NCBI GenBank assembly: GCA_903902515.1
Contig: CAIUVD010000326.1
Location: 2,350-66,349 of the forward strand
Direction of reading: 5' to 3'
DNA: 64,000 nucleotides
DNA from: an uncultured Planctomycetota bacterium
GTDB taxonomy: Bacteria > Planctomycetota > UBA11346
Within the stretch, counting starts at the first letter, position 1. Each line of letters opens with the position of its first letter. The notes under the pieces are model-generated. The model was given only the letters and a program-made list of their open reading frames with translations, searched no databases and was not told the DNA's origin. Shown here piece after piece: positions 17,495 through 62,247 of this stretch. The translations under genes and the position numbers were made by a program.

Positions 17495-17544
17495 GAGTGC
17501 TCCAATCCTTGAATGGGGTCGGGGCATCCGTACCACCGTGGGCC

Positions 17545-18036
17545 ATGGCCTACCTGACCATCCGTATCAAGGGCGAGGAAGGGTACCGCCGCGTTCCCCT
17601 CGACAAGGACCGCATGGTCCTGGGTCGTTCCTCCGCCTGCGAACTCCTGATCCCCTCCACCGCCGTCTCCCGGGAGCACTGCGCCTTCGTCCGTGAGGGG
17701 GAGCAATGGCTGGTCGAGGACCTGGGCAGCTCCAACGGCACGCGCATCGGCGAGCGCAAGGTGGACGGCCGGGCACCCCTGGCTGAGAAGGATATGGTGA
17801 AGGCCGGCGTCGCCCGCTGCACCTTCCACCTTGGGCCCATCCCGAACGCGGACGAAGCCTCGGAACCCACCGAGGAAGCCGCCCCGACCCGGACTCGGGG
17901 CGCGGATGACCCACAGGATGCCATCCCCTGTTCGGACTGCGGCAAATGGATGTCCATCGCCCATCGCCTGCCGGGCGAACGCATGCCCTGCCCATTTTGT
18001 GACAAGCGCCAGACCGTCCCGACGTTGATCTCCTGA
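17545..18036 (+). CDS. FHA domain protein with C-terminal Cys4 zinc ribbon
   Basis: FHA core (MVLGRSSACELLIPSTAVSREHCAF...SSNGTRIG); C-terminal CSDCGKW...CPFCDK. Confidence 0.8.
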   Translation: MAYLTIRIKGEEGYRRVPLDKDRMVLGRSSACELLIPSTAVSREHCAFVREGEQWLVEDLGSSNGTRIGERKVDGRAPLAEKDMVKAGVARCTFHLGPIPNADEASEPTEEAAPTRTRGADDPQDAIPCSDCGKWMSIAHRLPGERMPCPFCDKRQTVPTLIS

Positions 18037-18046
18037 TCCTGAGATT

Positions 18047-19402
18047 GTGAACGGCCCCATGACTGACGTTCCCGCCCCCACCGCCCCCAAGCCCACGGCG
18101 CCCCCTCGGGCGATTCGGTGGTGGGGATTCCTGGTGATCTTCCTCCTCATCCTGGCCACGGCAGTCCTCGCCCCGTGGTGGCTGTCTTCCTTCCTTCGGG
18201 CCAAGATCGACACCGCCCTGGCCTCCCAGGGTTGGGAATTAGATCCCGCCCATCCCCTCTCCATCAGTATTTACGGAGCCCGGATTAGCGGCGAGGACCT
18301 GACTCTGCGGATGATCGCCGACCAGCGCGTCCTGATGCAGGCCAAACGTCTGTCCGCCGACGTGGCCGTCACGGAAAGCCTCCAGAAGCGCGACCTGGTG
18401 ATCGCCGAATTGGTGGCGGACGGCGTGGTCGGAAGCCTCCGGCGGGGCCCCGATGGCCGCCCGCCCCTGGTGGCGGAGGAGCCCGTTGCCCCCGGGGCCC
18501 CGCTCATCGACTGGAAAAAAGTCGACTGGAAGGCCAATTTCCAAAAGGGGATGGACCAGTACCAAGAATGGCAGGCCAAGCGTGAGGCCGACCTGAAGCT
18601 CCCCAAGGATCAGCCAGCCCCTCGCCCGGCCCCCGAAGCTGACATCGATTGGCCCCAAGCCGTCAAACACCAGCCCGCCCCCACCGTGGGTCGCCACATC
18701 CCGCGGGTGGTGGTCCGCAAACTGTCGATCACCGGCGGCAAGGTGCCGATGCCTGACGAAGGCCCCCTCGACATCGCCTCTTTCAGCCTCACGGGGTCTG
18801 ATGTGGCCCTCCGTCAAGACCAGGGCGAGGTCATGCTCCTGAAGGCGGAGATCACCACCGAAGGGGCCGGACCCATCACCCTGGATCTGACCCGGGAGCA
18901 AAGCGGCAACGGCCGCTTGAACTTCGCCGCCCCGACCATGCCCCTCCAGGCCCTGAGCTCACCCGCCATCGCTGGCGACAGCCTGGCCCCCTGGGGCCCG
19001 ACGGGCACCGCAGCCATCACCGGAGCCCAGACCTGGACCGGCTGGGCCCTCAACGGCACCGTCGAGGCCCAGGTCAGCGGCCTGGCCCTCCAACCGACTC
19101 CGGGAGCCCCCTCCGAGGCCAAAACCGCCGCCAAGGTGATTGCCGCCCTCAAGGGCAAACCGATCCGCTGGCCGGTGGTCATCGGGGGCACCCTGACGAG
19201 ACCGGAAATTGTCGACAGCGGCCTCAAGAAGGTGATGGAGGAAAACCAGGGGGTGTTGATCGAAGCCGCCAAGGAGGAAGCCAAAGACAAGGCCCTGGAA
19301 AAGGGCTCGCAGCTCATCGACAAGGAACTGAAAAAGCATCCCGAGGCTGAAAAAGCCAAGGACGCCGCCAAGGACGCCCTCAAGAACCTGTTGGGTCGCT
19401 GA
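18047..19402 (+). CDS. membrane-anchored hypothetical protein (possibly TIGR03545-like) with Lys/Glu-rich C-terminus
   Basis: N-terminal TM helix (WWGFLVIFLLILATAVLAPWWL); large extracytoplasmic body; immediately precedes a TIGR03546/DUF2062-like gene; family assignment from memory only. Confidence 0.45.
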   Translation: MNGPMTDVPAPTAPKPTAPPRAIRWWGFLVIFLLILATAVLAPWWLSSFLRAKIDTALASQGWELDPAHPLSISIYGARISGEDLTLRMIADQRVLMQAKRLSADVAVTESLQKRDLVIAELVADGVVGSLRRGPDGRPPLVAEEPVAPGAPLIDWKKVDWKANFQKGMDQYQEWQAKREADLKLPKDQPAPRPAPEADIDWPQAVKHQPAPTVGRHIPRVVVRKLSITGGKVPMPDEGPLDIASFSLTGSDVALRQDQGEVMLLKAEITTEGAGPITLDLTREQSGNGRLNFAAPTMPLQALSSPAIAGDSLAPWGPTGTAAITGAQTWTGWALNGTVEAQVSGLALQPTPGAPSEAKTAAKVIAALKGKPIRWPVVIGGTLTRPEIVDSGLKKVMEENQGVLIEAAKEEAKDKALEKGSQLIDKELKKHPEAEKAKDAAKDALKNLLGR

Positions 19403-19405
19403 ATC

Positions 19406-19939
19406 ATGTTCACCCTCTACAAACTGATCCGCAACCTGTTCAAGGCCCTGACCTCGGACGCGGCACCGTGGCAGATCTTCCTCGGCACCTTTTTCGGAAC
19501 CCTGCTTGGCTTCCTGCCGATCTTTCCCCTCTCCCAGGGCCCCTCACCCATCGCCCTGATCCTGATTGGCCTGGTTCTGGTCATCAACGTCCACCTCGGC
19601 TCGGTGTTCCTGTTCCTGGGTATCACCAAATTGCTGTCCCAGGTCCTCCACGGTCCGGCCCTGCTGGTCGGTGAGCAGTTCAGCGGCCTGGCCCAGACCT
19701 GCGCCGACATCCCATTCCTCCATTTGAGCCACTGGTCCCACACGGGGTACCTGGGCCTGACCCTGTTCGGCCTCGTCTGTGCGCCCTTGTTTGCCATCGT
19801 GATGTACCGCTTCTGCCTGTGGTTCCGCGTCACCTGGCGGGACAAACTGATGGAGAAGGCCCGCCTGCTGCGCGCTGGGTCGGTGGTCGACCACCCCTGG
19901 CTGGTACGGTTGGCCTGTTGGTTCTTTGGTATCGACTAA
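19406..19939 (+). CDS. DUF2062/TIGR03546-like small membrane protein
   Basis: PWQIFLGTFFGTLLGFLPIFP motif characteristic of DUF2062-related proteins; 4 predicted TM segments. Confidence 0.55.
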   Translation: MFTLYKLIRNLFKALTSDAAPWQIFLGTFFGTLLGFLPIFPLSQGPSPIALILIGLVLVINVHLGSVFLFLGITKLLSQVLHGPALLVGEQFSGLAQTCADIPFLHLSHWSHTGYLGLTLFGLVCAPLFAIVMYRFCLWFRVTWRDKLMEKARLLRAGSVVDHPWLVRLACWFFGID

Positions 19940-19941
19940 CC

Positions 19942-22902
19942 ATGCGCCTGCCCCTGACCACTTCCCTGCTGGCGTTAGCGACATGGGTCGGGGCCGCCGA
20001 AGGCCCCCTGCTGACCCGCCCGGGGAACGACCTGGCGGTCATCAACACGCCCCATCTGCGGGTGATCGTGCCGGCGGCTCAGGCTGAGGCCCTGGGGCCC
20101 CTGGCCCAACGGGCCGATACCCTCTACGCCCACCTCGCCCTGGAGGCGGGCTATACCATCACCCGACCCCTGACCCTGATCGTCAGTGATGATGCCGAGG
20201 ACCATAACGGCTTCTCGTCGGTCGTGCCTAACCGGATTGTCCAGGTGGAGTTGGCCTCGTCCCTGCCCCGCAGCGGGATTTTTACCGGCGTGGATGAAAC
20301 CGAGCGGACCCTGGTCCACGAGTTCGTCCATCATATCAGCAACGACCGTAATTACGGTTTTCGGGGCGTCCTCGAACGGATTTTCGGGCGCATCTACCCC
20401 GATGAGTTCCTGGGTCTCGGGGTGGCCTACCTCTCGGTCCCGGCCCATGTGACCATGCCATCCTTCTGGCACGAGGGCATCGCCCAGTGGGCCGAAACCG
20501 CCTATGCCGACCCGGCCTCACCCTGGGCCGGCCGGGGCCGGGATAGCCTGACCCACCTGGTGTGGCGCCTGGATGCCCAGGCCGGAGAGATCCCCTCGGC
20601 CGACGCCTGGCGGGCGACCTACCACCGCTGGCCCTACGGCAATCGCGTCTACCTCTACGGCCTGGCCTACACCCGTTACCTGGAAGCTGCCTACGGGAAG
20701 GCTCCCGGCCTGTGGTCCTTGATCGAGGAACAGGGCCGAGGTTGGGCCTTTGAGTTCGATGACGCTCCGCGCCGACTCACGGGTAAACCCCACGCCGTGA
20801 TGATCCAGGAAGCCCGGCAGGCCCTGTTAATCGAACAGCAGGGCCACCTGGCGACCTTGGGCTCTCGACCGCTCACCAGCCTGCAACGCCTGACCCCCCC
20901 AGAAACCCTGGTGGCCGCCCCGGCGTGGCTGCCCGGCGGCGGGCTGCTGGCGGCCTACCACGACATCTACGACATCCCCACCATGATCGTCCTGGAGCCC
21001 GATGGCACCCTGGTGGATCTGGATGTGATGGCCTGGGATCGTGGTGAAGCCCGCAGTGTGGGGGATGGGACGGCGGTGTGGGCGGAATCCCGGCACAGCA
21101 CCAATCCCTGGCGGCGAAGCCGCATCATGCTGCGCTATCCCGATGGCGCGATCCGCCACCTGGAAGGCGATCGCTGCCGTCAGCCCGACCTACGGCGGCA
21201 GGCCAACGGCCAGGTGGAGGTCACCGCCATTCGCCAGGGTCCCGCAGGTACCCAGGATCTGGTCGTGGGGGCCGTCGGCCAGGCCATCCTCGGTAAACTG
21301 CCGGTGGAATGGCGAACCGTTCCCAGCCAGGGCCGGGCGTGGAGCCCGGCTTTTCGCCCCGGATCCGAGGCGTTGTCCTGGGTCGAAACCGATGCCACGG
21401 GCAGCCGCCTGATCCTGGCCCCCCTCGCCGAGCCGACCAAACGTCAGGTGCTGGCCGAGGTCCGGGGACGCATCATCCATCCGGCGTGGAGCGCCGACGG
21501 CCAGCGGGTGTTCCTGTGCGCCGACCACACGGGGGTCCCCAACGCCTGGTATGTTGACGCCCAAGCCCCCGGAATCCTCAAGCCCGTGACCCACGTGGTG
21601 GGGGGCGTGGTGGCCTGCGTACCCTCCCCCGATGGCAAGGAGCTGGCGCTGGTCGCCTATGACCGCCAGGGCAATTTCCTGGCCCGGATCTCCAACGACC
21701 CCGCCCAATTCCCGACGGAAGTCCCGCGTATCGACCTCGCCTGGCCGGCACCGGTACCGGCGGTCGCCGTGCCCGGACCCGTTCCCCGACCCCTGACACC
21801 CCTGCCAGCCACCACCGGTACCGCACCCCCGGCCACGCCCTACCGGGGCCTCACGGAACTGGCCCCCCTGTTCTGGACCCCAACCACCCAGGTGACGCCG
21901 GTTGGCGGCCTGGGCGTGGTGGCGGTGGCTGCGGATCCTATCAATTCCCACCAGGTGATCGCCAGTCTCGGGGTCGGTGACCATGACCAGACCCTGGTCG
22001 GATCCGCCGCCTACCTGTGCGCCGCCTGGACCCTGGAAATTGGCGTCTTGGCGTGGCGGGATGAACGGACCTACGACAATCAACTCTACGATGGCGCCGG
22101 TAACGGCTACGACCTCGTCGACACCACGGAAAACGTCGAAATTCGGGCTGGTTATGGCCTCCTCGGGCGTCAGCGGCGTTTCCAGGCCTACCTCGCCCTG
22201 GGCCAGGCCCGGACCGAAGAAACCTCCGCCAGCCAGGACCGTCACCAGGGCCAGACCCTGTTTAACCGGCCCGCTTTTGCCGGCCGGGAAACCTACGTTG
22301 AGGGCACCCTGGCCTTCAGCAGCAACCTCCTGTTTCCCACCAGCTACACCCGCGAGGACGGCACCCTGGCGGCGGCCACGTGGCGCTCGAGTGGCTTTGG
22401 CGGGGACCTGGAAGGCCAGCGACTGGTCGCCCGGGCCGCCCACACCATCTCGGTCTGGCCCTCGGCCGGACATCAATTGGTGGTCGGCGGCCTGGTCGGC
22501 TGGACCAGCCAGGATGCAACCCGGACCCTCCAGGGTCGCTTCGCCGTGGGTCCGCCCAGCACCCTGGGCATTCCCCGGGGTTACCACGAAACCGCCGCCA
22601 TTGGCGATTACCTGCTGGGCTGGACCCTGGCCTACCGTTTGCCGGTATGGCGGCCCTTCCGGGGCCTAGGCACCACCCCCTTCGCCCTCCGCCAGGTGGT
22701 GGTCGAGGCTTTCCTTGATGGCGCCAAGGTGATGGCGGACTCCCTCGGTGATCGGGCCCCGTGGTACCGCTCGGCGGGTGGTGAACTGCATCTCGATACG
22801 GAAATCTGGGCCCTGCGCCTAGCCCCGGGCCTGGGGGTGGCCCGCCAACTGGACGGCCCCGAGGACACCGTGGCGTACCTGACCCTAGGATTCGCCTGGT
22901 GA
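19942..22902 (+). CDS. large outer-membrane protein: HExxH metalloprotease-like N-domain, PD40/TolB-like beta-propeller repeats, C-terminal beta-barrel
   Basis: Signal peptide MRLPLTTSLLALATWVGAAEG; LVHEFVHH zinc-binding-like motif; repeated AWSADGQRVF / PSPDGKELALVAY PD40-like units; C-terminus ...AYLTLGFAW (terminal aromatic typical of BAM substrates). Confidence 0.6.
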   Translation: MRLPLTTSLLALATWVGAAEGPLLTRPGNDLAVINTPHLRVIVPAAQAEALGPLAQRADTLYAHLALEAGYTITRPLTLIVSDDAEDHNGFSSVVPNRIVQVELASSLPRSGIFTGVDETERTLVHEFVHHISNDRNYGFRGVLERIFGRIYPDEFLGLGVAYLSVPAHVTMPSFWHEGIAQWAETAYADPASPWAGRGRDSLTHLVWRLDAQAGEIPSADAWRATYHRWPYGNRVYLYGLAYTRYLEAAYGKAPGLWSLIEEQGRGWAFEFDDAPRRLTGKPHAVMIQEARQALLIEQQGHLATLGSRPLTSLQRLTPPETLVAAPAWLPGGGLLAAYHDIYDIPTMIVLEPDGTLVDLDVMAWDRGEARSVGDGTAVWAESRHSTNPWRRSRIMLRYPDGAIRHLEGDRCRQPDLRRQANGQVEVTAIRQGPAGTQDLVVGAVGQAILGKLPVEWRTVPSQGRAWSPAFRPGSEALSWVETDATGSRLILAPLAEPTKRQVLAEVRGRIIHPAWSADGQRVFLCADHTGVPNAWYVDAQAPGILKPVTHVVGGVVACVPSPDGKELALVAYDRQGNFLARISNDPAQFPTEVPRIDLAWPAPVPAVAVPGPVPRPLTPLPATTGTAPPATPYRGLTELAPLFWTPTTQVTPVGGLGVVAVAADPINSHQVIASLGVGDHDQTLVGSAAYLCAAWTLEIGVLAWRDERTYDNQLYDGAGNGYDLVDTTENVEIRAGYGLLGRQRRFQAYLALGQARTEETSASQDRHQGQTLFNRPAFAGRETYVEGTLAFSSNLLFPTSYTREDGTLAAATWRSSGFGGDLEGQRLVARAAHTISVWPSAGHQLVVGGLVGWTSQDATRTLQGRFAVGPPSTLGIPRGYHETAAIGDYLLGWTLAYRLPVWRPFRGLGTTPFALRQVVVEAFLDGAKVMADSLGDRAPWYRSAGGELHLDTEIWALRLAPGLGVARQLDGPEDTVAYLTLGFAW

Positions 22903-23426
22903 ACACCCCCCTACGCCCCCAAAACCTCTGGTACCGCCGCTGGTGGCGGATCTCCGTGCACGCGGTGCGCGGCGTGACGCGGCTCCAAGACACCCCCCAT
23001 CGGATCGCCACCGGGGTCGCCTGCGGTCTCTTTTCCAGTGTGCTGCCGATTCTCGGCCAGACCGTGGTCGGCATCGTCCTCACCCGCCTCCTGCGGGGCA
23101 ACATCGTCGCCAGTCTGCCCTGGAGTTGGATCTCCAATCCCGTGACCTCCCCGCTCATTTTTTATGGGTGTTATCGCGTGGGAATCCTGCTTATCCCCGG
23201 CCAGGAAGTCCTGTCCTGGGTGCAAATGGAGGCCATGGTCACCAAATTCCAGGCCATGGGATTCCGTGAAGCCCTGGCCGAGGCTGCCGGGGTTTTTGCC
23301 GGGGCCGCCCTACCCCTGGGGCTGGGGAGTTTGCTGGTGGGAGCCATCGTCGGCGGCATCGGCTACGCCGGTGCCTGGGGGGTGGTCACCACCATCCAAC
23401 AGCGCCGAGCCCGCTCCACCGGGTGA
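22899..23426 (+). CDS. DUF2062 family membrane protein
   Basis: RIATGVACGLFSSVLPILGQTVVGIVL core; GTG start overlapping the preceding stop by 4 nt. Confidence 0.55.
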   Translation: MNTPLRPQNLWYRRWWRISVHAVRGVTRLQDTPHRIATGVACGLFSSVLPILGQTVVGIVLTRLLRGNIVASLPWSWISNPVTSPLIFYGCYRVGILLIPGQEVLSWVQMEAMVTKFQAMGFREALAEAAGVFAGAALPLGLGSLLVGAIVGGIGYAGAWGVVTTIQQRRARSTG

Positions 23427-23447: not shown

Positions 23448-25067
23448 ATGCCGGATTCCGCCCTTCCTGACACCGTTCACGCTGTGGACCTGCTGCTGGG
23501 GGCGGAAAGCAGCCGAACCCTGCTCCGTCGGCTGGAAGACCTGCTGACCGCCGCCGAGGCCCTGCCCGCCCGGTTGTACCTCGCGGATATCCAGGGTGCG
23601 GTCTACTACATCGCCGCCGGTTTCGGCTGCTCTCGCGAGGGAGCGGACCTGCCCTTTGACCAACCCCGGACGCCCGGCCAGTTGGTGGTCACCAGCCAGG
23701 GCGAGCCCGTAGGCCTGCTGGAGGTCCCGGCCGCCGCCGCCCCGCGCCTCGAAGCCGTGGCCGGGATCCTGGGCCCCATCCTCGTCCAACGTCACCGCCA
23801 AGACCTGACGACCCACGACCTCCATCACGCCAAGGAACAAATCACCCACCTCCTGGCGGCCGGCGACCTTCTGCGCCACCTCGAAGTCGATACCCTGCTG
23901 GTGAAAATCCTGGAGACCGTTCTGACGGCCGTCCAAGCCCAGGTCGGCGCCGTCGTGGTTCCCGATGACCAGGGCCGACCCAAGGCCCGGGTCACCTGGG
24001 GTCTGCGCGAGGACCACCTCGCCCATATCAAACTGCGCGATGGCCGGTCCCTGGTGGCGGCAACCATGGAAGACGGCCAGACCCGTTGCCTGGATGAGCA
24101 GACCATTCAGCACGACCTCGATCTGACGGGCCTGACCGCCCATCTCACGGGCCTGATGACCCTGCCCTTGACCAGCCGCGGCGCGGTTCGGGGTGCGGTG
24201 ATCCTCGGCAACCCCCAGGAGGCCTTCACCCCGGCCACCAGCCGGATGGCCGAGACGGTCTGCGCCCTGGCCGCCATCGCCCTCGACAACGCTCTGCTGG
24301 TCAAGGCGATGGTCGAAAGCGAACGTCTGAAACAGGAGATGGAACTGGCCCGGGGCGTGCAGGCCGGCTTGTTTCCGGCCAAGGGCCTGCGCACCGGCCC
24401 CCTGGTGATCGAAGGAGCGAGCCGCTCGTGCAGTGAAACCGGCGGCGACTACTACACCTTCGGCGACCGGGGCCGGGACGTGGTGATGATGATCGGTGAC
24501 GTCTCGGGCCACGGCCTGGGGGCCGCCCTGTTCACGTTCATGGCCCACGTCCTCGGCAAACGCCTGTTCCGGGCCAGCATCGACCTGGATCACTGCTTCC
24601 GCCTCCTGAATGAGGAACTCTCCGACTACCAGAGCGGCCGGTTCATGACCGCCGCTCTGGTCGAAATCGACCCGAAAACTTTGGAATTTACCTACGTCAG
24701 CGCCGGTCACAACCCGCTGCTGTGGATCCACGAGGGCAAGGCGGTGTGGCTCGAAAGTTGTGGTTTCCCCCTCGGGATCATGTCGGAAGGCGAATGGCCC
24801 CCCAGCGCGTCCAAAACCCTTTCACCCGGCGACGTGCTGATCCTCTACACGGATGGCTTCAGCGAGGCGGTGGATCCCTCCGGCGAGATCTACACCGAGG
24901 AGCGGCTGGCGGCGGCCGCCATCGCCGCCTGGGAAAAAGGCCTCACTCCGACGGAAATGTTGGTCTCCCTCAACGCCGAGGCCGATACGTGGACCCAGGG
25001 AGCGCCCCACACGGATGACCTGACGATGGTGATCGCCAAGGTCGGCCCTCTGCCTGTCAGCGCCTGA
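23448..25067 (+). CDS. GAF-domain PP2C-type Ser/Thr phosphatase (SpoIIE/RsbU family)
   Basis: Two GAF-like regions, then PPM motifs GGDYYTF, MMIGDVSGHGLGAAL, YTDGFSEA, DDLTMV. Confidence 0.85.
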   Translation: MPDSALPDTVHAVDLLLGAESSRTLLRRLEDLLTAAEALPARLYLADIQGAVYYIAAGFGCSREGADLPFDQPRTPGQLVVTSQGEPVGLLEVPAAAAPRLEAVAGILGPILVQRHRQDLTTHDLHHAKEQITHLLAAGDLLRHLEVDTLLVKILETVLTAVQAQVGAVVVPDDQGRPKARVTWGLREDHLAHIKLRDGRSLVAATMEDGQTRCLDEQTIQHDLDLTGLTAHLTGLMTLPLTSRGAVRGAVILGNPQEAFTPATSRMAETVCALAAIALDNALLVKAMVESERLKQEMELARGVQAGLFPAKGLRTGPLVIEGASRSCSETGGDYYTFGDRGRDVVMMIGDVSGHGLGAALFTFMAHVLGKRLFRASIDLDHCFRLLNEELSDYQSGRFMTAALVEIDPKTLEFTYVSAGHNPLLWIHEGKAVWLESCGFPLGIMSEGEWPPSASKTLSPGDVLILYTDGFSEAVDPSGEIYTEERLAAAAIAAWEKGLTPTEMLVSLNAEADTWTQGAPHTDDLTMVIAKVGPLPVSA

Positions 25068-25101: not shown

Positions 25102-27849
25102 TTGGATCTAATGTCGGCACCCATGATCGCCCTGCGCCACCTGTCGCCCCTGCTTTTGACCCTGGCCCTGTGGTCGGCCAAGGAGCCGCTGCCGTTCCCG
25201 GAGATGGCACCAACCATCGGGACCCTGCTCCAGCGCAATTATTACGATCACCAGCGCTTCCAACCCCGGCTGATGGTGGAACGGGCCCTGCGGTCCCTGG
25301 AACGCGCGGAAATCACCATTGAAGCCCAGTGGAAGGATGGCGTCATCCGCATCCGTCACGAGAACGACCAGCGCACCATCCAGGCCCCGGACCCCCGGTC
25401 CCTGGAAGAAGCCATGATCTTGATTGAGGCCGTGCGCGGCGAACTCGACCGCACGCCCCTGACCAACACCCGCAAGCGTGAACTGACCTACGCCATGCTC
25501 AACGGAGCCCTGGCGACCCTCGATCCCCACACCGTTCTGATGCCCCCGGAGCCAGCCCAAAACTTCAGCGAGGATGTGGCGGGCGAATTCTTCGGCATCG
25601 GCGCCTACCTGGCCCAGAATGAGGGCATCATCTCCATCGAACGGGTCATGCCGGGTCTACCGGCCGAACGGGCCGGCATCGAGGACGGCGATGTCATTCT
25701 CGCCGTCGATGGAGAACGGACCGCCGGCCTGTCCCTGCATCAGGCCGTCAAGCGCATCAAGGGCCCCAAGGGCACCACCGTCTCGCTGACCCTCCACCGC
25801 AAGGGCATGCCCCAACCCATCGTCATCGCCGTGGTCCGCGACCTCGTGCAAGTGGTGACCATGCGGGCGTGGCGCCGCGACAGCATCGGCTATGTGCGGA
25901 TGGATGAGTTCAACGCCAACACCGCCCGGGATCTGGCCACCGCCCTCCTCGAATTGGAGCGCAGTGGCCCCCTGAGCGCCTTTGTCCTCGACCTGCGCTT
26001 CAACCCCGGCGGTCTCCTCGACCAGGCCAAACTGATCAGCGACTTCTTCCTGCCGGCCGGCAAGGAAATCGTCCGCACCGTGACCGTCGACGGCGACCCG
26101 CACATCACCTCCTCGTCACGCCAGACCCTGCTCGACGTGCCGATGGCCGTCATCACCTCGGGGGGAAGCGCCAGCGCGGCGGAAATCCTGTCGGGCTGTC
26201 TCCAGCTCAACGACCGGGCGGTAGTCCTCGGGACCACCACCTTCGGCAAGGGTTCGGTTCAGACCGTACGCCCCCTGCGGGACAACAGCCGCCTGAAACT
26301 CACCATCCAGGAATATCAGCTCCCCGGTGGCGTCTCGATCCAGGACGTGGGCGTAACCCCCGATGTGCGCCTGGTTCGGCACATCGTCGACAAGGATGGC
26401 AGCGTTGACCTCCTGCCCTTCAGCCCTCACCGGGAACACGACGAGGAATTCGCCCTCGCCAACCGCAAAGCCTACGCCCACCAGGCCACGGCCACCATCG
26501 GCTGGCTAGCCCATTACCGCAACAAGGACGAGCTGAAGGTCCATGGCATTGCGTCCCGTAGTTTCTCTCCTGACCAGGAGGCGATGCTGGTTCTCGACCT
26601 GATGGCCGCCGCCGCCAGCCAAGCCGACTTCGCCACGACCGGCCAGGCCGCGGTCAAATCCGGCCAGGGCCGCCGTTTCCTCCTTGATCGCCTGACCGCC
26701 CCCCTGCGGGAGCGGCAAGCCCGCGAGTCCGCCGCGCTGACCGAAGCCCTGGCCAAGCAGCCCCAGCCCATCACCTGGGGCCCGGAAACGGCCGTCGACG
26801 GCCTCCAGGTGTCGTTCGCCGGACCGGCCCAGATCCAGGCCGGCACCGATGCCGACCTGCGTTTCACCATCACCAACCCGTCCGACGTCCCGGCCGGTCG
26901 GATCTTCGGGATGATCGAGGCCGACATCGCTTCGCCCCTGTGGGAGGACGAACTCGTCGTCGGGGCGGTGCCGGCCCGCGGCACCGTCGAGGCCCGGCTG
27001 CACTTCCGCGTCCCCCCCCGGCTCTACGCCGGCGAGGAGCGATTCACCCTGGTCCTGCGCCATGATGGCCAAGAAGCCCCCCTCGCCCGCCTGCCCATCA
27101 GCCTGACGGTCGTGCCCCAGGAACGGCCCCATTTCGCCATTTCGTGGTCCATGACCCCGACGATCCTCAAGCCCGGCGAGCCCGCCTCCCTCGGTCTGCA
27201 GGTCCTGAACGATGGTTCCGGTACCTCGGCCCCCCTGAAGCTGCGGGTCTTCAAGTTGGACGATGCGTTCGTTCAATTGCTCGAAACCGAGCTGCCCTTC
27301 CCCAAGGGCCTGGCCCCCGGCTCGACCGCTCCCCCGGTGTCCGTGCCCCTCACGATTGCCGAGCAAGTCCGGGGCACGCCTTTCGCCGCCCATGAAATCC
27401 GCCTCCAACTGAGTCTGGCCGAGGATTTCGAAGATATCGATGATGAATCGCGAACCGATGGTCGCTACCGCTCGGGATTCGGCACCACCCTGACGATTCC
27501 GGTCGGCCAAGCCATCGCTCCCCGGTCCCTGGTGCCTCCGCGCCTGGCGACACGGGAGGTCAAGGTCGATGGAGGCATCGCCCACATCCGGATTCGCCTC
27601 GACGACGACAATCCCCGCTGGCTCACGATCCTCCGCAATGAGGACAAGATCGACCTCCGCAGCGTCACCGCCTCGGGGGAGTTCACCTTTGATGTGCCCT
27701 TGGAACCCGGCATCAACAGCGTCCAGGTGGTGGCGGTCGACGCCGACACCCTGGAACAGGGCATCCCCCTGCGGATCTGGGGCGCGGGCGAGAAGCCGAC
27801 CACCAAGCCCGCCGCCAAGGCGCCCCCGGGCAACGAGGTGCTGCCCTGA
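25102..27849 (+). CDS. S41 family C-terminal processing peptidase with PDZ domain and ~480-aa C-terminal extension
   Basis: PDZ (GIISIERVMPGLPAERAGIEDGDVILAVDG), S41 motifs LDLRFNPGG, ITSGGSASAAEI, TTFGKGSVQT; alternative start M8. Confidence 0.8.
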   Translation: MDLMSAPMIALRHLSPLLLTLALWSAKEPLPFPEMAPTIGTLLQRNYYDHQRFQPRLMVERALRSLERAEITIEAQWKDGVIRIRHENDQRTIQAPDPRSLEEAMILIEAVRGELDRTPLTNTRKRELTYAMLNGALATLDPHTVLMPPEPAQNFSEDVAGEFFGIGAYLAQNEGIISIERVMPGLPAERAGIEDGDVILAVDGERTAGLSLHQAVKRIKGPKGTTVSLTLHRKGMPQPIVIAVVRDLVQVVTMRAWRRDSIGYVRMDEFNANTARDLATALLELERSGPLSAFVLDLRFNPGGLLDQAKLISDFFLPAGKEIVRTVTVDGDPHITSSSRQTLLDVPMAVITSGGSASAAEILSGCLQLNDRAVVLGTTTFGKGSVQTVRPLRDNSRLKLTIQEYQLPGGVSIQDVGVTPDVRLVRHIVDKDGSVDLLPFSPHREHDEEFALANRKAYAHQATATIGWLAHYRNKDELKVHGIASRSFSPDQEAMLVLDLMAAAASQADFATTGQAAVKSGQGRRFLLDRLTAPLRERQARESAALTEALAKQPQPITWGPETAVDGLQVSFAGPAQIQAGTDADLRFTITNPSDVPAGRIFGMIEADIASPLWEDELVVGAVPARGTVEARLHFRVPPRLYAGEERFTLVLRHDGQEAPLARLPISLTVVPQERPHFAISWSMTPTILKPGEPASLGLQVLNDGSGTSAPLKLRVFKLDDAFVQLLETELPFPKGLAPGSTAPPVSVPLTIAEQVRGTPFAAHEIRLQLSLAEDFEDIDDESRTDGRYRSGFGTTLTIPVGQAIAPRSLVPPRLATREVKVDGGIAHIRIRLDDDNPRWLTILRNEDKIDLRSVTASGEFTFDVPLEPGINSVQVVAVDADTLEQGIPLRIWGAGEKPTTKPAAKAPPGNEVLP

Positions 27850-27855
27850 TGGGGG

Positions 27856-28914
27856 TCAGACCCGCTGCTGAACGCGCTTGGTCGGAGCCGGATTCCACCA
27901 CGCATCGATGCTCGACATGATGCGATCCCGCAGCAGGTAGGCGAGGACCAGGAAGATCACCAGACTGACCCCCACCAGCAGCCACCGCAGGGGTTCTGGC
28001 AACCCCGGGCCAGACGAGGACGGGCTGGCCCGGCGGGCTTTCAGGCCAGCGACGCAGGCCAAATCTTCTTCGAGGTCATTGAGGGTCTGATAACGGCGCT
28101 GGGGATTCTTTTTCAGGCAGCGTTGGATGACGGCGAGCATCTGCGGATCCATACGCGGGAAGCGTGGCTCCTCCTCGCAATGCATCTTCAACAAAACATA
28201 GGGATCCGTCGAGGTGAAGGGCGTGTCGCCGGTGACCATCTCGTACAGGATGATCCCGAGACTGTAGATATCCGACCGCTCGGTAACGTCCTTGGTATTC
28301 TGACACTGCTCGGGGCTCATGTAGAGCGGCGTGCCCATGATCTGGCCAGTCATGGTCAGTTTGGTGCGCTTCACGTCGAACAGTTTGGCCAGGCCGAAAT
28401 CGGCGACCTTGACCACCAGACCCTTGCGGATGTTGCCGATGATGAACCCACCCCGACCGTCCCCGGGACGGGTCAGGAGGAGGTTTTCTGGCTTGAGATC
28501 CCGATGAACGGTGGCCGCCTCCCGCAACCCCCGCAAGACCATGATCGCCACCCAGGCGGCCTCGGCCACGGGCAGGGACTTCCGCTTATCAAGCAGGTCC
28601 CGCAGGCTGCCCCCCGCCATGTGCTCCATGGCCACATAGGGGAACTGGTGATGCTGGCCGGTGGAACGGTACCCGACCACATGGTGACTGTTGCGAGCCT
28701 TGCGCAAAACCTCGCGCTCACGCTCAAAACGCGGGAGATCGCTGGCATTCTCCAAAACCTTAATGGCCACCAATTCTTCAGGATTCGACAGGAGCTGGCA
28801 GCGGAACACGCTGCCGCAACCACCCTCCCCGAGTTTCTTCACCACCCGGTATTTGCCGTCGATGATGTCACCCTGATTGACCCGTAACTTCAATTCCAGG
28901 GGCTGGGCGGGCAT
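27856..28914 (-). CDS. Ser/Thr protein kinase (Hanks-type) with C-terminal TM anchor
   Basis: GEGGCGSVF, AIK, HRDLKPENLLL, DFGLAK, SPEQ, DIYSLG motifs; ORF 27856..29676 trimmed to MPAQPLELK because the N-extension overlaps divergent folC. Confidence 0.85.
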   Translation of the reverse strand: MPAQPLELKLRVNQGDIIDGKYRVVKKLGEGGCGSVFRCQLLSNPEELVAIKVLENASDLPRFEREREVLRKARNSHHVVGYRSTGQHHQFPYVAMEHMAGGSLRDLLDKRKSLPVAEAAWVAIMVLRGLREAATVHRDLKPENLLLTRPGDGRGGFIIGNIRKGLVVKVADFGLAKLFDVKRTKLTMTGQIMGTPLYMSPEQCQNTKDVTERSDIYSLGIILYEMVTGDTPFTSTDPYVLLKMHCEEEPRFPRMDPQMLAVIQRCLKKNPQRRYQTLNDLEEDLACVAGLKARRASPSSSGPGLPEPLRWLLVGVSLVIFLVLAYLLRDRIMSSIDAWWNPAPTKRVQQRV

Positions 28915-29005
28915 GGCTCGGCACCCTATGGCCCGGCGAAGGCTGCCAAGACTACCACCCGTCGGCCTCCATTGACTGTCCTCCGGGCCGGCACGCTTCC
29001 CCACC

Positions 29006-30199
29006 ATGGTTTCACCGCCGACCCTCGACGGCCTCCTGGCGTGGCTGGATGCCGCCCCCAACCGGGAGCGCACCGGCAATTTCGCCGGCCTGCACACCCA
29101 GGCCATGGGCCGGGTCCTGGCCCACCTGCCAACACCCCCGGCCCCGGTGACCATCGCCGGGACCAAAGGTAAAGGCAGCACCCTGCACCTCATCGAGGCG
29201 GGCTTGGCCGCCCTGGGCCGGTCGACCACGGCCTTCACCAGCCCCCATGTCCGTTCCGTGGCCGAACGCTGGCGCCTCGATGGCAGGGAAGCCACCCCGG
29301 AGGATCTGCAGGACGCCCAGGCCACCGCCATGGCCGCTGAGGTCGCCGCCGGATGCCCCCTGTCGTGGTTTGAACGCTCCCTGGCCCTGGCCGTAATCCT
29401 GGCCAGCCGCCGACCCTCGGCGGTGTTTCTGGCCGAGGTCGGAATCGGCGGACGCCAGGATGCGGTGAACGCCCTCGACGCCGGAATCGCCGTGGTCACC
29501 CACCTGTCCCACGACCACCGGGATGTCCTGGGGCCGACCCTCGACCACATCGCCCACCAAAAATTGGGCATCGCCCGAGCGGGATACCCCCTGGTCATCG
29601 CTCCCCAAAGCCCCGAGGCCGCCGCGGCCATCAACCGGCGGCTGTCGGCGGGGGATGCCGACGGTGCGCTGATCATGGACGTCGGGCGCGGTCCAGCCCT
29701 CGACCTCGGCCTCCCCGGCGATCACCAGCAAGATAACGCCGCCACCGCTTTGGCGGTCCTCACGCTCCTCGCCCCAGGAGCCGACCTCGGGCCGGTCAAA
29801 GCCGCCTGGCGGGACCTCCACCTGCCGGCCCGTTGCCAACGGGTCCACCACCGGGGCCGGTCCCTGCTGGTCGATGGAGCCCACAATGGTCCGAGTATCG
29901 CCGCCACCCTCCAGGTCGCCCACCAGGACTTTTCCCAGGGTTTCACGCTGCTTCTAGCCCTGGCCCGGGACAAGGAGGTTGAGGAAATTCTGGCCACCCT
30001 CCCCGCCGGCCTGGGCGTCGTCCGTTGTGGCTACGCCAGCCCCCGGGCCCGTCAGGAAGCCGATTGGCCCCCCGAAGCTCGGGCGTGGCCGTGGTACGCC
30101 ACGGTGGCTGAGGCCCTGGCCGCCGTGCCCGGCCCCCTCTGCATCACCGGCAGTTTCTACCTGGCGGCCGAGGCCCTGGCGACCCTGGAGAGCCCCTAA
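29006..30199 (+). CDS. folC: bifunctional folylpolyglutamate synthase / dihydrofolate synthase
   Basis: Mur-ligase P-loop TIAGTKGKGST, HxxH-type THLSHDH, DGAHN. Confidence 0.85.
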   Translation: MVSPPTLDGLLAWLDAAPNRERTGNFAGLHTQAMGRVLAHLPTPPAPVTIAGTKGKGSTLHLIEAGLAALGRSTTAFTSPHVRSVAERWRLDGREATPEDLQDAQATAMAAEVAAGCPLSWFERSLALAVILASRRPSAVFLAEVGIGGRQDAVNALDAGIAVVTHLSHDHRDVLGPTLDHIAHQKLGIARAGYPLVIAPQSPEAAAAINRRLSAGDADGALIMDVGRGPALDLGLPGDHQQDNAATALAVLTLLAPGADLGPVKAAWRDLHLPARCQRVHHRGRSLLVDGAHNGPSIAATLQVAHQDFSQGFTLLLALARDKEVEEILATLPAGLGVVRCGYASPRARQEADWPPEARAWPWYATVAEALAAVPGPLCITGSFYLAAEALATLESP

Positions 30200-50006: not shown

Positions 50007-51596
50007 TCACCCCGACGATGACGGCGTCGTGATTCCGTGACTGGCTCCCACGGCCCGGCGACGGTCAAGGAAGGGGACGCCGAAGAAATCTCGGGAACCC
50101 CGTTGCGGCAGATACCAGTTCGATAGCCCGATGGTCATAAACACCGAGGGCGACTGAATCCTAAAATAGGGCATAAGATCCGGATTCGCCAGCGAGATTG
50201 GACGCGTAGCTCCAATCGGGGGGATAGAGAGTCTGCCCGCTTGAATGTCCTGATAATCCAAGGGAATGGCCTGATTGCCCTGCAAGAAACCGCCCGGCGA
50301 TGACGTAGCCCAAGCCCGGCTCGGATCCTGCAAAATCACGAGATTATCGAGGACCATTACCGAATAATCCTCGAACTTCGCGCCCCGGTCGGTCGTCTTC
50401 AGAATAATCCCACGGCTGGTCGGATAGCGGCCGAAAACGGTGTTATTGTAAATCCGTATCTGCTTGTTGCTGTTCGCATTTTGGCCACTGACGGCAATGC
50501 CGCCCGTCGTGCCCGACAACGCATCGTTGTCCGAAATATTATAGCGCACGATATGCCCACTATTGCTGAAGCCTCGATTGGTATAAATGAGGAATCCTGC
50601 ACCCTGATTATCGAAGGAATAATTGTACTGAAGAATGCAGTTCGTGGTTCCTTGGTCCAGGTCAAACCCTCCGCCATCCTGATTGTTCCGACTCCGGTTG
50701 TTGCGCGATACGCAATGCTGGATGGTGATGCCATCCGATGAGGCGGCCCAAATTCCCACCGGACCACCATCGCCCGCATTCCCCATCAAGGCTCCATTCC
50801 GCTGGGCAAGACAGCCATCAATCCTGGATCGACTGGTATTCTCCAAAAGGATTCCATTGCCACTGTGAGAGGTCGTGCGGTAGGGATCGCCTTGATTATC
50901 CTCGACCACCGAATTTCTGATCAGGATGTCGTAGGTATATCCGGCATTCGGGATTTGACGTGTTGGACTATTTCCCTGGGTGTGCACGCCCGCATATCCA
51001 TTTCCCGACGCCGTGACACGGTCCACGGTGATGGCGTTACTGCCATTCAGGTGAATCCCATTTCCGCGGAATCCTCGCACCGTGACGTTGCGAATCGTGG
51101 AATTACTCAACCAATTCCCATAGATCCCATCCGGGTAAGACACGGGGGTCACCGAGCCCGCCGATGACCGGGGAAGCGTAGGATTCCAGGCGCCGATCAC
51201 CTCCAGATTTTGCAGGATGATCCCTTGGCTACGCTGGAGCTGGATCCCATAGGTGGTGCCCGGAAGCACACGGAGGGTCGCACGGGCCGCGGTGGAGCTG
51301 GTCGTCGTATAAGAGTCAATCGTGATGCCATTTTTACGATCGAGCAACAATCCCTTCAGGCTTGGATCAATATCAAATGTATCTCCTGCCCTGAATAAAA
51401 TTTTGTCGCCACTCCGCAAAGAACCCATGGCCTGATTCATCTTCGCCACGGTTCTCCACGGCGATTGAGCACTCTTTCCCGTGGCAGTGAGATCGTTCCC
51501 CAATCTACTTACATAGTAATCCTGTGCGGATGCTGTCGCACAGCCTCCGACCAACAGCATGAGGTTGAAGAGCAGCTGATGTTTACGCATGGCCAT
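50007..51596 (-). CDS. secreted right-handed parallel beta-helix repeat protein (pectate-lyase fold)
   Basis: Signal peptide/lipobox-like MAMRKHQLLFNLMLLVGGCATASA; repeated NxxGxxxG / IRNVTVRG beta-helix rungs; GC lower than flanks. Confidence 0.65.
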   Translation of the reverse strand: MAMRKHQLLFNLMLLVGGCATASAQDYYVSRLGNDLTATGKSAQSPWRTVAKMNQAMGSLRSGDKILFRAGDTFDIDPSLKGLLLDRKNGITIDSYTTTSSTAARATLRVLPGTTYGIQLQRSQGIILQNLEVIGAWNPTLPRSSAGSVTPVSYPDGIYGNWLSNSTIRNVTVRGFRGNGIHLNGSNAITVDRVTASGNGYAGVHTQGNSPTRQIPNAGYTYDILIRNSVVEDNQGDPYRTTSHSGNGILLENTSRSRIDGCLAQRNGALMGNAGDGGPVGIWAASSDGITIQHCVSRNNRSRNNQDGGGFDLDQGTTNCILQYNYSFDNQGAGFLIYTNRGFSNSGHIVRYNISDNDALSGTTGGIAVSGQNANSNKQIRIYNNTVFGRYPTSRGIILKTTDRGAKFEDYSVMVLDNLVILQDPSRAWATSSPGGFLQGNQAIPLDYQDIQAGRLSIPPIGATRPISLANPDLMPYFRIQSPSVFMTIGLSNWYLPQRGSRDFFGVPFLDRRRAVGASHGITTPSSSG

Positions 51597-51977
51597 GGAG
51601 TTTCCTTTTGAGGTCATCCAGAGGAGGCAGGCAGCGCCGGAAGGCACATCTACTTTACTTGAATCAGTTGCATCATTCCATGCCTACCGTGGAAATCCCC
51701 TATCCATTTTGGAATGCGCCGTTGATCGCCCACCAGGGGGCCATGCAAATCGGCCCTCCTCCTGGCTCAATGGCGCGAACATCTGGTGATCAATACAAGA
51801 TAGGTCCATAGAACGACCAACGTGCGCAAACGCATCCGTGGTAAAACGGATCACCATCACCGAGCCACCTGACCAACTCCCGAGAACCCGAACGCACCTC
51901 CACGACGCGATACGAACGATTTCCAACGCACGCCGAGCCTTCCCGCCTCGTAAGCCGCCGTATGCTGCCACGCCCCC

Positions 51978-54833: not shown

Positions 54834-57461
54834 ATGACAAAGAATCCCAGGTCGATCGGCGCCCGTCTAGAGACGCCCTGGGGTAAATTGCAGCGACAGG
54901 ACCCCCAGGATCGCACCAGCCCAGTCATGGCCTGGCACCCCCTGCAGGATCATTGCGCCGATGTCGCAGCGTGCCTGGTGGCCCTCCTCGGAAGCGCCGC
55001 ACAGCCGACCGCCATGCGCCAGCGTCTTGCCGCCCTCGGGCACCAAGACCACCTCGACGACCAGCAAGTTGCGCGTCTTGGGGTGCTAGCGTTCCTGCAC
55101 GACATCGGCAAGGCGAATCGCGGATTCCAGGCCAAAGCCTTCGTCGAGGCCTCCCGGGATGCCGGCCATATTGCCGAAGTCATGGTCCTGCTGTGTCGTG
55201 GGGACCCACCCCTAATGAACGCCCTGGACTTCCCTTCAGACTGGTCAAAGGGAGACGGCACGATGGAACTGCTGGCGGCCGCCATCAGCCACCATGGCCG
55301 GCCAGCGGACCAGCCGCAGACCTTGCCCCACCCGGACACGGTGGCCCGCTGGTGGGCCCCGGGGTCCGACGGCGACCCGATGGCCACCATTCAGTCCCTG
55401 GTTGCCGCCACCCGGCGCTGGTTGCCCCAGGCTTGGGAATCCGGTGGCCGACCGCTGCCCACTACGCCGGGCTTTCAGCATGGTTTCTGCGGGCTCGTGC
55501 AACTCGCCGATTGGCTAGGGTCAGACACCGATTTCTTCCCCTACAGCCAGCCCGGCGAAGACCGCTGGCCCCGAGCCGTCGAAGCGGCGACTGCCGCCAT
55601 GGCCGCCACCGGTCTGGTAGCCACCGCCGCCCACGCGGCCCTGGCCGTGGATCCCCCCTTTTCCGCCATCAGCGATTTCCGCCCGCATCCCCTCCAAGCG
55701 GCCGTCGGTCGCCTGATACCAGCGGCGGGCCCCTCCTTGACCTTGATCGAAGAGGAGACCGGCGGCGGCAAAACCGAGGCGGCCCTCTGGCATTTCGCCC
55801 GGCTGTTCGCCGCTGGCCTGGTCGATGGGCTCTATTTCGCCCTACCAACCCGCACCGCTGCCACCCAAGTCCATCGCCGGGTCACCGAGGCCATCGCCCG
55901 CAGCTTTCCTACCAGCCCGCCAACCGTCATCCTGGCCGTCCCGGGCTACCTCCGCGTCGATGGGGCCGAAGGTCGGCCCCTGCCGGCGTTCGAGGTCTTG
56001 TGGAATGACGACCCGACCAAGGTTGACCGCCACCGCCGCTGGGCAGCGGAACACCCCAAACGGTTCCTCGCCGGAACCGTCGTCGTTGGCACCATTGATC
56101 AGGCGCTGTTGGCGGCTTTGGCCGTCGATCACGCCCACCTCCGTTCCGCCTGCCTGCTCCGGCACCTGCTGGTCGTCGATGAGGTCCACGCTTCGGACGC
56201 CTACATGAACCGCCTGCTGACGGCGCTCCTAGAACGCACCCGGGCCGCCGGGGGGCATGCGCTGCTGATGTCCGCCACCCTTGGGTCCGTGGCCCGCAAT
56301 GCCTTCCTCGGCTCCTGGGGCCACCCCACCACGACCAGCCCCGCCGAGGCCCAGGCCATCCCCTACCCCACCCTGTGGGCGGTCGGCGCTCCACCCCAGG
56401 TGGTGGAGCGTACCGGCCGGGACCGGCGGGTGACCCTGACCACGCTGGAGGCCGATGATCCGGCCGTCATCGCCCGTCGGGCCCAGGCAGCCGCCCAGGC
56501 CGGTGCCCGGGTACTGATCATCCGCAACACCCGGGCGGATTGCCTCGCCACCCAGGCCGCCCTGGAATCCACCGTGGCGCCGGACCTCTTGTGGCGGGTG
56601 GCTAGCCCAACCGGTCTCCTGCCCGTGCCCCATCACGCCCGCTATGCCCGCGAAGACCGAACCTACCTCGATGCCGGGATCGAAGCCGCCTTCGGCAAGC
56701 ACGCCGAGCGTCACGGCGGCCTGATCGCCTGCGCCACCCAGACCATCCAACAGGCCCTCGACCTGGATGCCGACCTCCTCATCACGGACTTGGCCCCGGT
56801 CGATGTGCTCCTGCAACGCCTCGGCCGCCTGCACCGCCATGCCCGGCCCCGGCCCACCGGCTTTACCGACGCCCAAGCCGTGATCCTCAGTCCCCCCGAT
56901 TCCCTGGCCACCTGGCTGGGTAACCCCCGCCGGGGGCCCCATGGCTGGGGCACCGTGTACCAGGACCTACGGATCCTGGAGGCCACCCGCCGGCTGGTGG
57001 CGGAAGGCACCTGGGCGATCCCCCAGGACAATCGCCGGTTGGTGGAACAGGCCACCCATCCCGATCTCCTGGCGGTACTCACCATCGATGATCCTCGCTG
57101 GGCTACCCACGGTTACGACCAACAAGGCCGCCTCTATGCCCTGAAGGATCGCGCCCGCCTGGGCCTGCTGCCCTGGCATCGTACCTTTGGCGAGCCGGAA
57201 GTCCTTTTCCCTCGTGAAGCGATGGATGGGGAACTGAAGACCCGGTTGGGGGAAAATGATCGGCGCATCGTCCTTCCCACGCCCTGGTCATCCGCCCTGG
57301 GGCAGACCATCCGCGAACTGACCGTGCCGGGCTGGTGGTGCGCTGACCTGCCCCCAGACGCCCCCGTTCGCGTTACACGCAACGAAAGTTGCGCGCAGAT
57401 CCAATTTGGGCCCCTACGCTTTTCCTATGACCGCCTTGGCCTACGCCGTGAGGAGACCTGA
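54834..57461 (+). CDS. cas3: CRISPR-associated helicase/nuclease Cas3 (type I-E; HD + SF2 helicase)
   Basis: HD motifs (HPLQDHCADVAA, LAFLHDIGKANRGFQ), Walker A EEETGGGKTEAAL, DExH LVVDEVHASD. Confidence 0.95.
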   Translation: MTKNPRSIGARLETPWGKLQRQDPQDRTSPVMAWHPLQDHCADVAACLVALLGSAAQPTAMRQRLAALGHQDHLDDQQVARLGVLAFLHDIGKANRGFQAKAFVEASRDAGHIAEVMVLLCRGDPPLMNALDFPSDWSKGDGTMELLAAAISHHGRPADQPQTLPHPDTVARWWAPGSDGDPMATIQSLVAATRRWLPQAWESGGRPLPTTPGFQHGFCGLVQLADWLGSDTDFFPYSQPGEDRWPRAVEAATAAMAATGLVATAAHAALAVDPPFSAISDFRPHPLQAAVGRLIPAAGPSLTLIEEETGGGKTEAALWHFARLFAAGLVDGLYFALPTRTAATQVHRRVTEAIARSFPTSPPTVILAVPGYLRVDGAEGRPLPAFEVLWNDDPTKVDRHRRWAAEHPKRFLAGTVVVGTIDQALLAALAVDHAHLRSACLLRHLLVVDEVHASDAYMNRLLTALLERTRAAGGHALLMSATLGSVARNAFLGSWGHPTTTSPAEAQAIPYPTLWAVGAPPQVVERTGRDRRVTLTTLEADDPAVIARRAQAAAQAGARVLIIRNTRADCLATQAALESTVAPDLLWRVASPTGLLPVPHHARYAREDRTYLDAGIEAAFGKHAERHGGLIACATQTIQQALDLDADLLITDLAPVDVLLQRLGRLHRHARPRPTGFTDAQAVILSPPDSLATWLGNPRRGPHGWGTVYQDLRILEATRRLVAEGTWAIPQDNRRLVEQATHPDLLAVLTIDDPRWATHGYDQQGRLYALKDRARLGLLPWHRTFGEPEVLFPREAMDGELKTRLGENDRRIVLPTPWSSALGQTIRELTVPGWWCADLPPDAPVRVTRNESCAQIQFGPLRFSYDRLGLRREET

Positions 57462-59486: not shown

Positions 59487-59489
59487 ACC

Positions 59490-62240: not shown

Positions 62241-62247
62241 TCCGGCC

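Follow-up and report, generated by a model that had tools for sequence, protein, structure and literature searches.

To our knowledge, the Omp85 superfamily is central to the building of the outer membrane, and we know of no function for those of its branches that lack POTRA domains. Some members, such as PlpD and the TpsB proteins, export polypeptides. In BamA and TamA, a dome formed by loops 4 and 6 (L4 and L6) closes the barrel to the outside, and the motif (V/I)RG(F/Y) in L6 is a signature of Omp85 barrels. All solved Omp85 proteins known to us have their N-terminal domains in the periplasm. This work concerns an Omp85-type gene found in 64,000 nucleotides (nt) of DNA from an uncultured Planctomycetota bacterium (GenBank assembly GCA_903902515.1, contig CAIUVD010000326.1, positions 2,350 to 66,349 of the forward strand); this whole stretch is called the window here. 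The gene lies at positions 19942-22902 of the + strand. The analysis confirmed that it is a real gene, whose 986-amino-acid (aa) product joins a zinc-peptidase-like domain, a TolB-like propeller, and an Omp85 barrel in one chain. We consider it rather likely that this protein is a zinc peptidase anchored in the outer membrane and facing the periplasm, with its propeller serving as a gate or substrate platform.

The closest described group is one of the ten bacterial subfamilies into which the Omp85/TpsB superfamily was split, termed "WD40-like" (Heinz and Lithgow, 2014; Front Microbiol 5:370, PMC4104836). The main text of that study, in which the word Planctomycetes does not occur, discusses only a TolB/BamB-like propeller for the group and likens the proteins to a fusion of BamA with BamB. 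In its Table S2, the Pfam pattern of the subfamily is given as PF07676 x n + PF01103. Phyre2 results for about 100 members, listed in Table S3, comprise a BamA/TamA barrel, TolB, and a "best aminopeptidase hit" at ~99% confidence, for which the templates were 1z5h, 4kxd, 3qnf, and 4fgm (family M1) and 4ar1 and 4ar9 (family M9) (PMC4104836). A summary from 2024 ascribes to the subfamily "divergent WD40 and peptidase domains" (PMC11358297).

The window protein shows the same three-part architecture of peptidase, TolB-like propeller, and BamA/TamA-type barrel. Its TolB-like PD40 propeller stands N-terminal to an Omp85 barrel, POTRA domains are lacking, and there is an extra M1/M9-like peptidase domain. 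Distant full-length relatives carry the Pfam pattern of Table S2 (PD40 + PF01103). The window protein is only ~20-25% identical to the PF01103-positive relatives and itself falls below the PF01103 threshold. Because of the shared architecture and the profile-level homology to PD40 + PF01103 proteins, it is classed as a probable member of the WD40-like Omp85 subfamily. The architecture was already catalogued in 2014 and is not new, so the initial annotation, which knew of no characterized protein with this arrangement, has to be corrected to that extent.

The open reading frame (ORF) is intact from ATG to stop (986 codons plus the stop), close to the ~990 aa first estimated. A longer, GTG-initiated ORF from position 19819 runs into the upstream gene. 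The likely start is the ATG at 19942, because it lies 3 nt past the upstream TAA stop and homologues begin aligning at residues 1-5. A protein identical to the window protein (P0001) is present on four metagenomic contigs, and the window protein is 40-72% identical to more than 120 full-length homologues. A profile search against 1.84 billion cluster representatives (clusters at 50% identity) yielded 661 clusters at E<=1e-30, and among the matches listed, most are full-length at ~950-1050 aa. The full-length AlphaFold2 model, built with a 114-sequence alignment (A1), has a mean predicted local distance difference test (pLDDT) score of 93.9 and a predicted template modeling (pTM) score of 0.93. 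Given the many full-length homologues, the 661 clusters, and the confident model, this is not a chance GC-rich ORF. No second copy of the family was found in the window. The first 20 residues (19942..20001, +; MRLPLTTSLLALATWVGAAE) read as a typical signal peptide, as called in the initial annotation, and contain no lipobox cysteine. This segment, modeled as a lone helix, is the only disordered part of the model and the only one with pLDDT below 50.

The signal peptide is followed by the N-terminal domain (N-domain; aa 21-306; 20002..20859, +). A separate AlphaFold2 model of aa 22-312 reached a pLDDT of 92.5, and the full-length model shows a mixed alpha/beta and helical composition for the domain. 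In a Foldseek comparison with the PDB, the M1 matches of the N-domain model included the cold-active aminopeptidase of Colwellia (3cia, E 9e-5). Further M1 matches were LTA4 hydrolase, ERAP1/2, and IRAP, and the list extended to the M61 aminopeptidase 7xyo and to the peptidase domains of M9 collagenases. The Table S3 templates 4fgm and 3qnf were recovered directly, together with 4ar8, which is close to 4ar1/4ar9. As modeled, the N-domain has the thermolysin-like gluzincin fold of M1, M61, and M9 peptidases. The motif HEFVH (aa 126-130; 20317..20331, +) lies on this fold and, from its conservation, would supply zinc ligands and the catalytic base. The gluzincin-like motif named at the outset is confirmed, and LVHEFVHH occupies aa 124-131. 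Its position had been given as about 170 aa into the protein, which holds only when counting from the GTG at 19819; from the ATG it is ~125.

Two further conserved segments complete the putative active site. In M1 peptidases, the first Glu of the motif WLNEGxxxYxE is the third zinc ligand, and the catalytic tyrosine belongs to the motif Y-E-K-G (Tyr383 in LTA4 hydrolase). The window protein has WHEGIAQWAE at aa 176-185 (20467..20496, +), in which W-x-(x)-E178-G-x-A-x-W-x-E185 resembles the former motif and E178 is the presumed third zinc ligand. Downstream, Y237-L-Y-G240 (20650..20661, +), that is Y237-x-x-G240, resembles the latter, which makes Y237 a candidate transition-state tyrosine. Compared by hhalign with a fragment of human LTA4 hydrolase, the N-domain alignment showed a weak local match (probability 5.9%) that pairs Y237 with Y383 and G240 with G386, a hint only. 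HExxH and a downstream Glu are thus found on a thermolysin-like fold, as in gluzincins, and zinc binding itself is predicted.

Conservation of these residues was assessed in A1, in an alignment of 69 full-length sequences (A2), some only ~19% identical to the query, and in the whole set of 335 retrieved relatives that are 880 aa or longer. Across A2, 11 columns are invariant, and six of them are H126, E127, H130, E178, E185, and Y237. H126, E127, H130, E178, and E185 are equally invariant in A1, and G240, like Y237, is invariant in A1, A2, and the N-domain alignment, as are E178 and E185. HExxH is present in 333 of the 335 relatives, and an EGx[AGS] motif follows within 90 aa in 328 of them. 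The initial annotation had made its zinc-peptidase proposal depend on conservation of HExxH and a third ligand in homologues, and both are conserved. Since the catalytic residues are invariant down to ~19% identity and HExxH is so widely kept, the peptidase is probably active. The invariance of H-E-x-x-H, E178, E185, and Y237 is what would be expected from selection on catalysis rather than on a scaffold.

The same data bear on the idea of a non-catalytic scaffold, with the HExxH domain serving as a binding module or pseudo-peptidase and the protein, for example, tethering the envelope in the manner of TolB or assisting assembly in the manner of BamB. Consistent with such a role, no Pfam peptidase model recognizes the divergent N-domain, and the main text on the subfamily treats only the WD40/TolB/BamB analogy (PMC4104836). 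At least one relative, the metagenomic protein P0134 (953 aa), has lost HExxH, and the EG of its Glu-bearing helix is changed to EA. P0134 is likely, from these substitutions, a pseudo-peptidase offshoot of the family. Against a scaffold stands the retention of HExxH, E178, E185, and Y237 down to 19% identity, and of HExxH in all but two of the relatives counted, which renders this explanation very improbable.

The likeness to M1 peptidases has limits. The fold is shared with LTA4 hydrolase, ColAP, ERAP1, and the tricorn-interacting factor F3, with M61 and M9 next-nearest, as are HExxH, the Glu in a W-x-x-E-G-x-x-x-(Y/W)-x-E helix, and the Y-x-x-G tyrosine motif. Unlike M1 enzymes, however, the window protein lacks the x18 spacing, the GxMEN motif, the M1 N-terminal beta-sandwich, and the C-terminal helical cap. 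The distance from H130 to E178 is 47 residues, and ~31-49 across the family, compared with 18 in M1. In place of the GxMEN exopeptidase motif, the upstream strand holds H-N-G-F-S (aa 88-92). The window protein has no Pfam M1 match; among 31 diverse family members, Peptidase_M1 matched one (E 0.19), and Peptidase_MA_2 gave weak matches in six (best 5e-4). Because of the non-M1 spacing and the missing GxMEN, the N-domain falls outside the formal definition of M1 and is filed in the MA clan as a divergent gluzincin whose fold is M1/M9-like.

The second module is a TolB-like PD40 beta-propeller (aa 320-585; 20899..21696, +), delimited by profile, Foldseek, and AlphaFold2 strands. It is all-beta in the model, with ~5-6 blades by strand count. 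The two repeats first cited as PD40/TolB-like, AWSADGQRVF (aa 515-524) and SPDGKELALVAY (aa 562-573), both fall inside the TolB-matching region. TolB is the best PDB sequence match (E 6e-4 when the single protein is searched, 3e-54 with the family profile) and is also among the top Foldseek matches of the model. Distant relatives additionally match the Pfam propeller families Tricorn_N and Tricorn_2nd. The PD40 repeats are homologous to those of the TolB and tricorn/S9 propellers, and the propeller fold is similar. However, the N-terminal domain of TolB is lacking, and the propeller is fused on both sides. The NCBIfam model for TolB, TIGR02800, has a cutoff of 343 bits; its score on the window protein is 30.1 bits, over aa 465-577 only. 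On the basis of this score, the window protein is judged not to be a TolB orthologue.

A proline-rich linker (aa 586-639; 21697..21858, +), recognized by composition, conservation, and the model, leads from the propeller to the barrel. Its 54 residues are 28% Pro and mostly coil, yet they are modeled at pLDDT ~89-98. Residues W601, P602, P604, Y634, G636, and R641, in or near the linker, are conserved.

The C-terminal module (aa 640-986; 21859..22899, +) is a beta-barrel of the Omp85 type, as indicated by AlphaFold2, Foldseek, and the family profile. The model shows 16 long strands within aa 641-985, mostly at pLDDT >90. A C-terminal barrel had been predicted from the start, and fold prediction bears it out. 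Its length is ~347 aa, preceded by the linker, rather than the ~400 aa first given, and with 16 strands it is not a classical 12-stranded autotransporter barrel. A short helix (aa 762-767) lies in L4, between strands 7 and 8. L6 is a 34-aa loop between strand 11 (aa 844-855) and strand 12 (aa 890-903) and holds PRGY (aa 878-881; 22573..22584, +), the conserved counterpart of the (V/I)RG(F/Y) motif. R879 is conserved in at least 90% of sequences, no sequence of A1 or A2 departs from G880, and none of A1 departs from Y881. RG[YF] occurs within the last 160 aa of 275 of the 335 full-length relatives, and 280 of them end in F, W, or Y. The last strand of the window protein (22870..22899, +) ends in LTLGFAW, which contains the GFAW terminus pointed out initially; its sequence, with alternating hydrophobic residues and an aromatic terminus, resembles a beta-signal.

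Foldseek matched the model to Sam50, BamA of E. coli and D. radiodurans, TamA, Toc75, and CdiB (E ~1e-6). Searched against the PDB by sequence alone, the family profile matched D. radiodurans BamA (E 8e-8) and TamA (1e-4). As modeled, the barrel belongs to the Omp85 superfamily and is of the BamA/TamA/Sam50 type, sharing with these proteins the 16 strands, the L4 surface helix, the L6 (V/I)RG(F/Y) motif, and the C-terminal aromatic residue. It differs in what precedes the barrel. BamA and TamA carry POTRA domains, whereas the window protein carries a peptidase and a propeller, and no BamB-E or TamB partner is evident here. A Pfam search for POTRA found none, and in the model, aa 21-585 are accounted for by peptidase and propeller, followed by the coil linker.

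These features suggest how the protein may work. After Sec export, the machinery for beta-barrel assembly (BAM) would insert the C-terminal 16-stranded barrel by means of the terminal aromatic beta-signal. The inserted barrel would possess a BamA-like L4 helix and an L6 PRGY latch. Because L6 joins strand 11 to strand 12 and the linker runs straight into strand 1, the end of the linker, where strand 1 begins, is expected at the periplasmic face. The proline-rich linker would then keep propeller and peptidase in the periplasm, just below the outer membrane. This periplasmic orientation follows from strand parity and from the periplasmic position of the N-terminal domains in solved Omp85 proteins, and we infer it on these grounds. 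In the M1/M9-like gluzincin, H126, H130, and E178 would bind zinc, E127 would be the catalytic base, and Y237 probably stabilizes the transition state. The most plausible role of the propeller is that of a gate or a platform for substrate binding, as known from tricorn protease and from S9 peptidases, and it would let through only unfolded chains or peptides. The whole protein would be an outer-membrane-tethered envelope peptidase.

Several observations weigh against this interpretation. The window protein reaches no Pfam or NCBIfam peptidase model at significance, and the N-domain profile had no significant match among PDB sequences (best, a zincin-like protein at E 0.22). The barrel lies below the threshold of the Pfam Omp85 family PF01103 and does not match it even at E<=10. 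Omp85 homology of the window protein is backed indirectly, because the family profile matches BamA and because distant full-length relatives pass PF01103 (24.6-47 bits against a cutoff of 24). No neighboring gene is conserved family-wide that would hint at substrates. A full-text literature search found no experimental study of any WD40-like Omp85 member, and in this respect the first statement that no protein of this kind had been characterized stands. Finally, the family lacks POTRA domains, and PlpD and TpsB proteins do export polypeptides, so surface exposure is possible by analogy.

Surface exposure would be the outcome of type V-like self-export, in which the Omp85 barrel moves the peptidase-propeller passenger to the cell surface in the style of PlpD and type Vd secretion, yielding an anchored or released nutrient protease. 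The initial annotation had offered related options, a surface-anchored protease or export of the protease domain through the barrel. A 16-stranded Omp85-type barrel is indeed what type Vd and TpsB transporters use, and the 54-aa linker could span a barrel lumen. Like PlpD, the window protein combines an N-terminal enzyme domain with a C-terminal 16-stranded Omp85 barrel. However, the passenger of PlpD is a patatin lipase, accompanied by one POTRA domain, whereas the window protein has a zinc peptidase and a propeller; neither patatin nor POTRA, the marks of type Vd, was found in it, and TpsB proteins differ from it in the same way with regard to POTRA. Both features that shut BamA and TamA off from the outside, the RGY latch in L6 and the L4 helix, are kept. 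The passenger of ~565 aa would be tightly folded, the model joins it rigidly to the barrel as a single unit (pTM 0.93), and no processing site is evident. In the subfamily survey, translocation across the outer membrane was raised only for the patatin-like and "Metallo" Omp85 groups and not for the WD40-like group (PMC4104836). Self-export is accordingly considered unlikely, and a peptidase facing the periplasm is more likely than one that is surface-exposed or self-exported.

A periplasmic peptidase could also have a specific class of substrates. The barrel seam might capture stalled or misfolded barrels, which the propeller-gated peptidase would degrade, so that the activities that BamA and the M48 protease BepA exert jointly in E. 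coli would be combined in one chain. By analogy, such quality control of outer-membrane proteins (OMPs) would be a special case of the periplasmic model. The zinc peptidase BepA is a BAM-associated enzyme that degrades LptD and BamA when they stall (review PMC13067283), and the comparison of the WD40-like group to a BamA-BamB fusion (PMC4104836) points in a similar direction, as do the retained BamA-like barrel hallmarks and the invariant catalytic residues. BepA is likewise a periplasmic zinc peptidase that works beside an Omp85 barrel and is the functional analogy for this proposal. It differs in being a separate soluble M48 protein, with TPR rather than a propeller as the accessory domain, and the peptidase fold of the window protein is M1/M9-like, not M48. 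The proposal is drawn purely from analogy, POTRA domains that could receive substrates are lacking, and linkage to bam, surA, skp, or degP genes is not conserved. Together, these points make dedicated quality control decidedly unlikely. As a tentative and somewhat doubtful suggestion, the protein might be a single-chain envelope machine in which the barrel serves the tethered peptidase, either by presenting stalled or misfolded OMPs for degradation at its seam, like a fusion of BamA with BepA, or by POTRA-free export of the ~565-aa folded passenger, which would be a new variant of type V-like secretion.

Within its subfamily, the window protein belongs to a narrow group. A scan of GTDB genomes with A1 returned only uncultured metagenome-assembled genomes (MAGs), nearly all deposited as Planctomycetota and a few under other names. 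The window protein represents a divergent clade confined to uncultured Planctomycetota MAGs. Several Planctomycetota MAGs (locus pairs L064/L067, L049/L068, and L055/L070) carry two paralogues, one ~50-58% and the other ~31-41% identical to the query. The presence of two copies per MAG points to an old paralogy within the clade.

The window is an ordinary stretch of planctomycete chromosome that includes ilvD, gyrA, sua5, uvrD, panC, uvrB, and rpe, and the target gene sits in a tight run of genes on the same strand. Upstream on the + strand are genes for an FHA and zinc-ribbon protein (17497-18036), for a membrane protein of 451 aa whose N terminus holds a transmembrane segment and which has only a weak GspN-like match (18047-19402; E 2e-3), and for a TIGR03546-like small membrane protein (19406-19939; 65 bits, below the cutoff of 79). 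Downstream on the same strand follow a DUF2062 protein (22899-23426; E 5e-29), whose start overlaps the target stop by 4 nt, a GAF-SpoIIE (PP2C) phosphatase (23448-25067), and, three genes from the target, a 915-aa S41/PDZ peptidase (25102-27849). A Ser/Thr protein kinase is encoded next on the - strand (27856-29676). The target is thus flanked on both sides by small DUF2062-type membrane proteins, TIGR03546-like upstream and DUF2062 downstream. The FHA protein, the SpoIIE phosphatase, and the kinase are three parts of Ser/Thr-phosphorylation signaling.

The order panC, FHA, 451-aa protein, TIGR03546-like protein, target, (DUF2062), SpoIIE, S41/PDZ is found at ~14 loci, all in the nearest subclade. 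The upstream pair of 451-aa and TIGR03546-like proteins is kept only there, and DUF2062 is already missing at the locus of a 71%-identical homologue (L006). The same order travels with panC, which is unrelated and divergently transcribed, and is absent in clade members at 43-47% identity and in Myxococcota-type relatives. Since the order is restricted to a subclade, linked to panC, and absent farther out, the notion that the operon partners form a functional system was rejected, and the target is treated as acting alone. A TamA-TamB-like pairing with the upstream 451-aa protein was likewise rejected, as its sole support was the GspN match. Tricorn protease likewise belongs to the S41-type peptidases and contains PDZ and propellers; F3, with which it works, is an M1 aminopeptidase. 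The target and the downstream S41/PDZ protein together present tricorn/F3-type modules split over two proteins. This juxtaposition is clade-restricted and may be a coincidence.

Two other features of the window lie apart from the target. A Cas3 gene (HD nuclease and helicase, 875 aa) at 54834-57461 (+) is followed on the same strand by ORFs at 57461-58996, 59490-60701, 60680-61441, 61434-62240, and 62905-63777; the region 54834-63777 (+) is probably a type I CRISPR-Cas operon. At 50-52 kb, the GC content dips to 0.55 from ~0.66. The dip coincides with a gene at 50007-51647 (-) for a 546-aa right-handed beta-helix (NosD-like) protein, which may have been acquired horizontally.

The family to which the window protein belongs is large and widespread, as the 661 clusters at E<=1e-30 attest, and figures in the literature mainly as a "WD40" curiosity. 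Relatives are named in databases as "hypothetical", "PD40 domain-containing protein", "BamA/TamA family outer membrane protein", or "Tol biopolymer transport system component"; the first, second, and last of these names leave the peptidase unrecorded. To the existing catalogue, the present analysis adds that the catalytic residues are invariant throughout the family, that the full-length protein is modeled with high confidence, that its barrel bears explicit Omp85 hallmarks, and that no gene partner is conserved. The invariant residues and the modeling of the whole chain as one rigid, confident unit turn a catalogue entry into a testable hypothesis of a tethered, propeller-gated zinc peptidase. 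If the barrel does cooperate with the peptidase, whether by substrate capture or by export, this would represent a way of working that is new for Omp85 proteins.

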